Of a DNA stretch of 64,000 nt, positions 2,109 through 63,562 are shown one piece after another. The first letter of the stretch is position 1, and each line of letters starts with the position of its first letter. Under the pieces are notes generated by a model. The model was given only the letters and a program-made list of their open reading frames with translations. It was not told the origin of the DNA and did not search any database. The stretch is from Octopus sinensis (Eukaryota). The position numbers were made by a program, and so were the translations under genes. The stretch spans positions 106,144,001 to 106,208,000 of the forward strand of contig NC_043003.1 in NCBI RefSeq assembly GCF_006345805.1, in the 5' to 3' direction.

Positions 2109-2174
2109 TTTGCTTCTTATTTGTGTGTCTCTCCTTACTAACGGTCAGCCATTTTGTACAAAGAAGAAAGAAAA

Positions 2175-2219
2175 GGACCACTGATGAGGTCACAGAAGTG
2201 TGACGAAAGAAATCTGGCC
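2175..2219 (+). ncRNA. Minimal type I hammerhead ribozyme motif
   Basis: ggacca-CTGATGA-G-GTCACA gaag TGTGAC-GAAA-gaaa-TC-tggcc. Confidence 0.7.
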
Positions 2220-17506: not shown

Positions 17507-18809
17507 CGAGAGGAAGTCAAAAATTATCTGCACTTTCGCCTTAACATATCTTTATTATTGTCACACTGCCTTCTGCGCATGCTTGCTTATAGTTGGTACT
17601 ATTGTGGTCATGTGATCGAAGTTTGAGCCTGATCGCGCCCATTTTTCTTTCCGGCTTTACAGTGTAAGCATGGCCGCTCCACTAGCAATGTGCACCAAAG
17701 AAGAACAAAAAGCAGTGATCTGATTTCTCTGGTCATCAGGTGTGTGAGGTGCTGAAATTTATTGGAGGCTTTTAGCACAATACAGGGATAGTGCACTACC
17801 ATGTAGACGTGTGTATGAGTGGATTGAGAAGTTTAAAAGTGGCCAGACAAGAGGGAGAAGGGACCCCGTCAACCTCCACCACTGACGAGAAGATTCAGCA
17901 AGCTCAAGAGATGCTATTGGTGAACCGGTGAGTTACCATTGATGAGGTGGCTCGTTCTCTGCAGATTAGTCATGGTTCTGCCAATCAAATCATCCAAAAT
18001 GAGCCCCGGCCTCGATAAAGTCTGTGCAAGATGGGTGCCAAGAGAGCTTACTGCAGAGCACAAGCCCAAACGTCTTCAGGGTCTGCCAATGTTTACTCGA
18101 TCTCTACAACAATGAGGGCGAGGAATTTTTGAGCAGAATAGTCACAGGAGATGAAACGTGGGTTCATCATTATGAGGCAGAATCTAAAAGACGGAGTATG
18201 GAGTAGAAACATCCTGATTGGCCAGCGACGAAGAAATTTGAATTTCTTGAGACTCAGTCTTCCGCAGCAAAAACGATGCTAACCGTTTTTTGGAGACTCA
18301 AATACTAGATTACCTGGAGAAATGGGTGTATGATCAAAAGTGCAAGATACAGTGCTTTGTTGGCCAATAAACTGAAGCCAGCAATTTGCACCAAATGCCA
18401 AAGCCTATTGTCAAAGAAAGTTTTGTTGTTGTATGACAATGCACACCCATACACGGCCACCCAGACTGTTGAAACCATTAATCAATTAGGTTTTGAGGTG
18501 CTGGAATACCCTGCCTACAGCCCAGATCTCGCCCCTTTCAACTATCGTAGTATTTTGGACCGCTCAAAAAGATGGTTTACGAGGTCGTCCGTTTCCTACG
18601 GATGAAGATGTGAAGGAAACGGTGCATAAATGGTTGCATGAACAACCGAAAACCTTCTTCTTGGAGGGAATACGCAAGATTGAGGGCCGCTGGACCAAGT
18701 GCATCGGAAAGGAAGAAGGCTATAGGAAAATTACATACTTGTTTATCCCTTGCTTTTGTGTAAATACACTGAAAAAACAAGAATGCGTATAATTTTTTAC
18801 TCTCCCTCG
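17507..18809 (+). mobile_element. Full-length defective mariner transposon (irritans-like)
   Basis: Imperfect TIRs CGAG.G...AAAAATTAT in TA context; transposase from 17670 with CARWVPRELT, IVTGDETWVHHYE, YDNAHP, YSPDLAP; stops and frameshifts. Confidence 0.93.
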
Positions 18810-18810
18810 T

Positions 18811-18860
<50 letters not shown>

Positions 18861-18937
18861 GCAACGTGGAAGATGTTTATAAGCCATTTAAAAGCACACA
18901 GCAAACGTTAGATTCACTTCAACATTTAAATTTAATT

Positions 18938-18984
18938 TGCCAAAATATTTTCGGCGCTTTGAGACCGCGACCTGATCACTGACA
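18938..18984 (-). ncRNA. G3-C8 variant hammerhead motif (mirror copy)
   Basis: TGTCA-GTGATCA-G-GTCGC ggtctcaaa GCGCC-GAAA-ATAT-TT-TGGCA. Confidence 0.68.
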
Positions 18985-19004
18985 AAATTATGTGCTGCCG
19001 GAAT

Positions 19005-19051
19005 TGTCAGTGAACAGGTCGCGGTCTCAAAGCGACGAAAATATTTTGGCA
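19005..19051 (+). ncRNA. G3-C8 variant minimal hammerhead ribozyme motif
   Basis: TGTCA-GTGAACA-G-GTCGC ggtctcaaa GCGAC-GAAA-ATAT-TT-TGGCA. Confidence 0.72.
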
Positions 19052-19204
19052 AATTAAATTTAAATGTTGAAGTGAATCTAACGGTTTTGTGTGTTTCTTA
19101 AATGGCTTATAAAACACCTTCCACGCTGCAATTGTTTTCGTTCCAGCACACGATCTCTGATCAGGTCACTTGCTATGGAAGTACATCTCCGTAACACACA
19201 AACC

Positions 19205-24279: not shown

Positions 24280-24450
24280 TTGGCGTTTTTCTTTCTCCGT
24301 CTTCCCTTCTTTGGACTTTTTTCTATATTTCTGACGAAGAGCTCCGCTCGAAACGTGAAATCCACTTTCTTTTCTTTCCTTACCTGAGCGTCCAATAACA
24401 CGATTTGTACCACGTCCTCGCGTTGTTGTTTTTTCTTGCTTGTTCTTGTT
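24280..24450 (+). mobile_element. Short dispersed repeat containing a hammerhead-like motif (copy 3 of 3)
   Basis: ttt-CTGACGA-A-GAGC tcc GCTC-GAAA-CG-TG-aaa at 24328-24360. Confidence 0.7.
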
Positions 24451-24613: not shown

Positions 24614-24876
24614 ATATAAAATAGTGTACATTTAAACACAAGAAGAGAAAACTGCCTTCAACAGGCAGTTTTTACACGCTAGAAGAAGCAGTCAAAACGA
24701 CCAAAACCACATTTAAGAGCAATGTTCAAAAGGAATGAAAAATAACGTATTTATTTTTCATTCCTTTTGAACATTGCTCTTAAATGTGGTTTTGGTCGTT
24801 TTGACTGCTTCTTCTAGCATGTAAAAATTACCTGTTGAAGGCAGTTTTCTCCTGTGTTTAAATATACAGTATTATA
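24614..24876. repeat. Near-perfect palindrome, about 130-bp arms, 5-nt loop
   Basis: Centred on CGTAT at 24746-24750. Confidence 0.92.
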
Positions 24877-28216: not shown

Positions 28217-28586
28217 TTTATTTGTGCGTTAACAAAGCTACCAATGGTTTCATGCCGAGAGAAATATTTCAACAATTATCAAACCTGCCCCATGGGAACG
28301 TTGATACTCGCCCACATCTTGGCTGAGAATACACGAAGCTACACAACACACCACGGGGTTTAGGGATAAACAAGCAATTAGGCAATTTATTATTATGATT
28401 TTCCAATAAGTTATCTCTCATGATCTGTATATTTGTTTATCCCGAAATCCCGTACATACTCATGTAGCTTCGTGTATTCTCATCCGAAATGAAGGCGAGT
28501 TCTAACGTTCCCACGGAGCAGGCTTGATAACTGTTGAGATTTCATCTGCATGGAACCATTGATAGCCTTGTTGATCCACAAATAAA
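28217..28586. mobile_element. Foldback/MITE element with about 155-bp diverged arms
   Basis: For example TGAGAATACACGAAGCTACA pairs with TGTAGCTTCGTGTATTCTCA, and GGGATAAACAA with TTGTTTATCCC. Confidence 0.8.

Positions 28587-34817: not shown

Positions 34818-63562
<28,745 letters not shown>

Follow-up and report, generated by a model that had tools for sequence, protein, structure and literature searches.

The window analysed here is a 64,000-nucleotide stretch of the Octopus sinensis genome, and the insertion under study occupies its positions 18857–19194. It begins as a near-perfect inverted repeat with arms at 18857–18985 and 19004–19133, the 83-nt core of which is 96% complementary, and it ends with a tail of about 60 bp. 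The inverted repeat agrees with the palindrome described earlier at 18857–19133, but the right limit given then falls short of the end of the insertion, as the tail, which is common to other copies, adds a further 61 bp (19134–19194). Palindrome and tail together make up one copy of a non-coding repeat of about 209 nt. At its centre lies a head-to-head junction (18985–19004) that holds remnants of a 5′ leader of about 20 nt and varies between copies. Read from this junction outwards on the minus strand, the inverted partner arm (18857–18998) lacks the tail and contains the second of two hammerhead motif copies (18938–18984). The first, of the minimal type I, lies on the plus strand at 19005–19051 with a predicted cut after 19046. 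It is followed by the rest of the pLTR-like arm (19052–19133), which reaches a first 3′ end point and has weak homology to the C3–G8 sister families described below, and then by the optional tail, which reaches a second 3′ end point. A (TA)n tract at the left edge (18812–18856) is the likely insertion target, and a CA/TA tract follows directly after the tail on the right; no target duplication was discernible for this copy at 18857–19194. A broken transposase fragment at 18420–18810, which from its motif we take to be of mariner type, runs up to the very edge of the (TA)n tract in which the element sits.

In the plus-strand arm, stem I is formed by 19005–19009 and 19047–19051 (5 bp) and leads into the core GUGAACA (19010–19016), which supplies G3, C8 and A9. 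One extra G, absent from the original prediction, follows A9 at 19017. Stem II (19018–19022 with 19032–19036, 5 bp) opens with a G10.1–C11.1 pair, GAAA occupies 19037–19040, the 6-nt self-complementary AAUAUU spans A15.1 to U16.1, and U17 is position 19046. The G3–C8 core, stem I, GAAA and self-complementary stem III that had been read from the sequence are all found on this strand. The 5-bp stem II claimed for both arms holds in the plus arm but is broken in the minus arm by a private mismatch at 18954. The minus arm carries G3 at 18979, C8 at 18974 and a U7 at 18975 that is private and arose after insertion, so the difference between the arms at position 7, once taken as a sign of a free N7, loses that meaning. 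An A stands at N7 in 97 of 104 arms, and in 44 of the 45 scored arms among the best BLAST matches.

Compared with the strict hammerhead consensus, the motif has U4, G5, A6 and A9, G12, A13 and A14, the A15.1–U16.1 pair and H17, which is U in all 115 arms of the G3–C8 family (115/115). Stems I and II flank the core as the consensus demands, except for the broken stem II of the window's minus arm. Positions 3 and 8 form a Watson–Crick pair, with G3 and C8 in place of the C3 and G8 of CUGANGA. The extra base between positions 9 and 10.1, the G10.1–C11.1 pair and the short palindromic helix III are features of the min-HHR class. The G3–C8 core departs only from the literal C3/G8 consensus. We regard it as a new natural form of a ribozyme already known from Penelope-like elements (PLEs), one for which the comparative support is unusually strong, and we consider it very likely that the motif is a hammerhead homologue. 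An Rfam scan of the element gave zero hammerhead model matches at E ≤ 10, and a canonical sister at window 2151–2219 reached only E = 1.6 at best, indicating that Rfam is nearly blind to both. A mir-358 match on the element was set aside as generic hairpin scoring, far under the gathering score.

The predicted fold of the plus arm recovers stem II with probabilities of at least 0.99; of the five stem I pairs, three also reach this value and the remaining two stand at 0.93 and 0.54. In the predicted monomer, G3 pairs with U17 (probability 0.67), and this pairing depends on the base at position 17, rising to 0.98 with C and falling to 0 with A. In the literature searched, which lacked several key papers, G3–C8 appeared only as an engineered change; for one such variant a data-not-shown statement gives more activity with G17 than with C17 (PMC3884650), which fits a G3–C17 trap. 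A hand-built active dimer has a predicted energy of −20.6 kcal/mol, compared with −22.6 for two monomers and −25.6 for the best dimer, which places the active dimer above the predicted ground state. We nevertheless predict that the motif quite probably has measurable cleavage activity.

The original prediction had called for a genome-wide census of G3–C8 motifs. A pattern left open at positions 3, 7 and 8 has 6,218 exact matches in the genome and none in a reversed control, and these divide into 4,915 with G3–C8, 725 with C3–G8 and 578 with other combinations; all such pattern counts are lower bounds, and their units are arms, not insertions. The exact G3–C8 pattern likewise gives 4,915 matches compared with 0 for its reversed control, which shows that the motif is not a chance occurrence and puts the census at no fewer than 4,915 intact cores. 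The tail pattern has 5,114 exact matches, and a DNA search with the element returned 2,555 candidates, of which 40 were scored, at about 90% identity. For a sample selected independently of the core letters at 3 and 8, we used 90 of the first 100 tail matches, all on one contig (C1), with some neighbours and duplicates included and seven sharing a single junction. The tail-selected arms have G–C at positions 3 and 8 in 87 of 97 cases and C–G in 0 of 97. G3–C8 characterises the family as a whole and came down from its source element, as the original prediction had held for the double swap. It was also right that a CUGANGA search misses the family: combined with the family's stem II ends, that search finds six matches only, 0 of them from the G3–C8 family.

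The copies themselves are decaying. Private substitutions affect 32 of 1,261 core positions (0.025) and 320 of 12,392 positions in the rest of the element (0.026), and from these near-equal rates we conclude that inserted copies decay neutrally and that selection on genomic copies is absent. A young copy is present in 20 of 24 listed public sequencing runs under five organism labels, nine of which may stem from the very DNA analysed here, and no variants at or above 5% at positions 3 or 8 were listed in three well-covered runs. Part of the copy number reflects passive duplication, as the same junction recurs at many loci: one identical-junction G3–C8 insertion lies inside a larger duplicated unit, as at L184, L191, L218, L229, L234, L255 and L257 and at L057–L062.

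One copy (L215:485-691, minus strand) showed two further peculiarities. The six bases with which it begins can pair with a complementary stretch of six directly preceding the 3′ end, and in the predicted fold of the unit a segment of the 5′ leader pairs with the last bases; this pairing may close the RNA or may record an old inverted-tail junction. At L215:547-617, three sequencing runs that we guess to be RNA (X14, X16 and X18) carry additional A>G and T>C differences, such as one at position 578 with 14–24% of the depth, which were not listed at 5% in the other, well-covered runs. Palindromic copies that are transcribed and undergo A-to-I editing would give this pattern, and alleles or other copies could explain it too. 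Penelope repeats are heavily edited in a lizard (PMC5625713).

The anatomy of the insertions was examined at the 90 tail-selected loci. An inverted partner is present in 52 of the 90 and the remaining 38 are monomers. The partner arm stops before the tail in 44 of 54 cases, at 145–153 on the element ruler, and the sequence of the junction and the length of the arms differ between copies. Two 3′ end points bound the tail, which is one-sided. Flanking repeats of 7–20 bp, mostly 8–14 bp, were called in 38 of 90 loci with no shuffled control; 18 of these lie in microsatellites, where the call is unsure, and 20 lie outside. When the subfamily letters of the two arms of one insertion are compared, they agree in 265 of 308 cases, whereas independent arms would give 159; this argues that the palindrome is built from one template lineage at insertion. 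The occurrence of the motif on both strands, earlier counted as two observations, is for the same reason not a pair of independent ones. The palindrome itself is ordinary.

The family has a sharp 5′ limit, which lies about 20 nt upstream of stem I. Of the 548 copies with a full 5′ end, 30 were inspected; every one of them ends at the same base with no shared sequence upstream, and 83 of 144 arms begin within the first 13 nt. Contigs from two other sequencing runs also drop off at this limit, leaving loose ends at L215:691. Arm starts lie no further than 2 nt from the predicted cut in only 3 of 144 cases, showing that cleavage does not set the ends of copies and that uncut RNA is the usual template.

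These features recall the insertion units of PLEs, which include 5′-truncated copies, an inverted partner, an optional one-sided tail, short target duplications and AT-rich or (TA)n targets. In described PLEs (Arkhipova et al. 2013, PMC3846280; Craig et al. 2021, PMC8557442), the unit likewise has head-to-head pLTRs with a one-sided tail, microsatellite targets and duplications of 8–10 bp, and pLTR-bounded sequence is mobilised in trans. The family here differs in its tail (about 60 bp, compared with 30–40 bp), in its sharp 5′ limit and in that no coding copy was seen in the 30 of 548 inspected. A PLE origin of the family is highly probable. A MITE, that is, a non-autonomous DNA transposon with a hammerhead-like string in long inverted repeats, would account for a palindromic unit of about 280 bp beside TA repeats and a mariner-type fragment. 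However, monomers make up more than a third of the loci (38/90), neither the junction nor the arm length is constant, the tail is one-sided, the flanking repeats are mostly 8–14 bp, and the arms are homologous to the ends of GIY-YIG elements. Having found neither a fixed-length unit, nor symmetric inverted repeats, nor a fixed short duplication, we regard a MITE as largely refuted and very improbable. The family also resembles the non-LTR retrozymes (bioRxiv 10.64898/2026.07.22.740005) in being non-autonomous, hammerhead-bearing and PLE-linked, but those form tandem arrays. Here an adjacent same-orientation copy occurs at 0 of 90 loci, with one partial tandem in L165, and a tandem non-LTR retrozyme was rejected for this lack of monomer arrays.

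A PLE origin could also mean that the copies are heavily 5′-truncated products of an autonomous, low-copy G3–C8 PLE still residing in the genome. Sister families do extend 5′ into UTR, GIY-YIG and RT sequence, and the upstream region was inspected for only 30 of the 548 full-5′ copies. Yet those 30 all end at the same base, more than half of the arms (83/144) start in the first 13 nt, none was seen to continue into shared sequence, and the run contigs drop off at the same place. One sharp 5′ limit makes random truncation an unlikely source, and we consider such an element improbable as the origin of the copies. No ORF combining RT and GIY-YIG was present among the G3–C8 copies examined, and 0 of the 30 full-5′ copies (of 548) extend into a coding parent. 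Six pairs of same-strand or close matches were considered as full-length elements and rejected, being mostly duplicated segments with no PLE ORF.

The open pattern also caught two C3–G8 families, S1 and S2, that share the layout of the G3–C8 family and have a similar tail. Long copies of both carry GIY-YIG-like or RT-like sequence upstream: in L139 and L144 the sister ribozymes have GIY-YIG-like sequence 500–800 bp upstream, and in L142 the upstream sequence is RT-like. A member of S2 is present in the window itself as a second palindromic hammerhead insertion (2045–2375), with the palindrome near 2070–2215, a CUGAUGA core on both arms (2181 on the plus strand, 2102 on the minus strand) and its own tail before (TA)n. 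A further family, S3, was found through the GIY-YIG domain (PF01541). The motif lies downstream of the domain in 18 of 30 loci and is U3–A8 in all of them; in the example at L274:2741-2786, a GIY-YIG-coding PLE carries a U3–A8 core in a layout homologous to that of the G3–C8 family, with 17 further loci alike. The G3–C8 motif was absent from the top 30 GIY-YIG loci and from 30 loci related to the L146 endonuclease.

Other hammerhead-bearing sequences turned up alongside these families. At L148:1753-4092 (L076; also L085 and L089–L091), an open RT + GIY-YIG frame of 780 aa with a CxxCxxC-type linker is followed by a U3–A8 motif with A17. We presume this element to be Neptune-like, and its many near-identical copies make it a candidate recent source of PLE protein. 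Older-looking C3–G8 motifs at L065:1496-1541 and in L066 begin stem II as the G3–C8 family does; the flanks of L065 showed no significant homology to the G3–C8 family by stringent local alignment. Within the window, a simple scan flagged hammerhead-like strings at 24331 (plus strand), 2764 (minus) and 27943 (minus), two C3–G8 and one U3–A8, which are probably other PLE-derived families. Long hairpins at 24708–24788, 28296–28511, 39899–40005 and 54328–54416, flagged by generic miRNA models only, may be further inverted retroelement stubs.

Outside the ribozyme, homology between the G3–C8 family and its sisters is modest on alignment. Stringent local scoring of the flanks gives a weak signal, with the best scores reached by 7 and 8 of 500 shuffles. 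Against a profile of the sister families, six of eight G3–C8 copies score above all 200 shuffles and the other two are reached by 2 and 1 of 200; by global alignment, 6 of 12 sister copies score above all 300 shuffles. Across 18 hand-picked rows from five groups, the 3–8 pair is C–G in nine, G–C in six and U–A in three. Two stem II pairs change in a compensatory way over the same rows (CG/UA and GC/AU), and the G10.1–C11.1 pair is G–C in 18 of 18. In this alignment 107 of 108 cells are paired, compared with 6–55% in slid controls, and the covariation amounts to about four family-level events, not 18 independent rows. In a tree of 20 of 24 rows, leaving out four short or outlying ones, the G3–C8 and U3–A8 sequences each form one well-supported group; this 20-row tree does not resolve the branching order of the C3–G8, U3–A8 and G3–C8 families. 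The C3–G8 sisters mostly have C17 and the G3–C8 family has U17. U17 is also found in the U3–A8 sister S3 and A17 in an unrelated U3–A8 family, so a link between N17 and the core swap is only suggestive, and U17 may predate the swap, given its presence in S3.

Three Watson–Crick forms of the 3–8 pair and two compensatory stem II pairs within one clade are likely to reflect selection, and the flipped pair was probably favoured because it preserves the function of a putative self-cleaving RNA. The original prediction had drawn selection on ribozyme function in the source element from the double swap. That conclusion is supported by the covariation among homologous families, but the comparison of the two arms does not serve as evidence for it. 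Within the G3–C8 family, subfamily changes fall neither in the core nor in stems II and III, and the one in stem I keeps its pairing (U–A or U–G). In loop II, five of nine columns vary among subfamilies, a contrast with p = 0.0015 that counts columns and probably stands for only two to three events. Shared variants affect 2 of 38 columns in the ribozyme and 9 of 129 elsewhere (p = 1), so within the family the ribozyme shows no higher conservation than the remaining sequence.

This lack of excess conservation is what one would expect if the hammerhead were a dead or irrelevant relic in a family that spread because its pLTR and tail suit the PLE protein, the fold perhaps serving as a protein-binding structure and G3–C8 perhaps being two hitch-hikers. 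The rarity of arms beginning at the cut site (3/144) points the same way, as do a predicted ground state other than the active dimer, the ability of G3 to pair with U17, and the finding that ribozyme mutants left insertion unaffected in vitro (Frangione et al. 2024, PMC11167929); a flip of the 3–8 pair would moreover have to pass through an unpaired intermediate. However, two changes that restore a tertiary Watson–Crick pair while the other core letters are kept are hard to obtain without selection on the active fold. The same clade shows U3–A8 and two compensatory stem II pairs, and the 3–8 pair belongs to the catalytic conformation (Perreault et al. 2011, PMC3088659). We consider a relic unlikely, though of all the alternatives it deserves the most serious attention.

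The account that we favour as probable is that of a non-coding family of about 209 nt, derived from a PLE 3′ end (pLTR and tail), with a fixed G3–C8 core and predicted weak self-cleavage as a dimer. A related PLE would supply the RT/GIY-YIG protein that binds, in trans, a short transcript from a few source copies; this protein would nick AT-rich DNA and begin reverse transcription at either 3′ end point. In the one PLE reconstituted in vitro, PAc from Anolis, nicking and extension take place on both DNA strands, and two RT start sites bound the tail (PMC11167929), which would explain the two end points seen here. Two copying events on the same template lineage would then yield a head-to-head pair with the tail on one side, making the palindrome a by-product of insertion. 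The template would mostly be uncut RNA, as is reported for PAc, for which ribozyme mutants did not affect insertion in vitro (PMC11167929).

Any action of the ribozyme would be confined to the few source copies. There, two RNAs would pair through the AAUAUU palindrome to form stem III, and the flipped 3–8 pair would complete the active fold, with U17, in place of the C17 of C3–G8 sisters, likely weakening the competing G3–N17 pair. Weak dimer cleavage, perhaps aided by protein, may regulate or process a minority of the RNA, and cutting would not define the inserted unit. Inserted copies, including the one in the window, would be neutral passengers, and when a palindromic copy is transcribed, a long hairpin is predicted to hide both motifs. 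More tentatively, and with somewhat less than balanced confidence, we propose that a SINE-like Penelope parasite whose 5′ end is defined carries the first G3–C8 hammerhead that is both natural and catalytically active, and that one clade sampled C3–G8, U3–A8 and G3–C8, the last by way of an unpaired intermediate and with U17 as its permissive partner.

Literature searches, which missed several key papers and supplements, found no natural G3–C8 core, U3–A8 being known, and no hammerheads or short Penelope families in octopus. The closest described relatives are the min-HHRs in the pLTRs of metazoan PLEs (Cervera & de la Peña 2014, PMC4209133). Like the motif here, they have a type I topology with a 5-bp helix I, an unpaired base between 9 and 10.1, a G10.1–C11.1 pair and a palindromic helix III suited to dimers, and they occur as dispersed truncated copies and opposite-strand pairs. 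In the accessible portions of that paper, positions 3 and 8 are given as C3–G8 and natural U3–A8 only, whereas G3–C8 is fixed over thousands of copies here. Natural U3–A8 (PMC3088659) is, like G3–C8, a compensatory 3–8 change in nature. It keeps the pyrimidine–purine order and would be reachable through a U–G wobble, whereas G3–C8 reverses the order by two transversions. The same swap has been made in the same ribozyme class as the C3G/G8C double mutant of PAc, with partial rescue (PMC11167929); there it was a laboratory control, whereas here a successful family carries it naturally.

PLE hammerheads are nearly universal, yet they cut poorly and were dispensable for insertion in vitro (PMC4209133, PMC11167929). 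A clade with three natural 3–8 forms argues for selection on the active fold and offers a ready panel of natural 3–8 variants. The family widens the natural core consensus: CUGANGA descriptors miss the larger class of this clade (4,915 exact matches compared with 725), and animal hammerhead censuses may therefore be incomplete. If the natural G3–C8 motif is indeed active, cleavage would be selected in PLE source elements although it is uncut RNA that gets inserted, and G3–C8 ribozymes would be an overlooked class in animal genomes.
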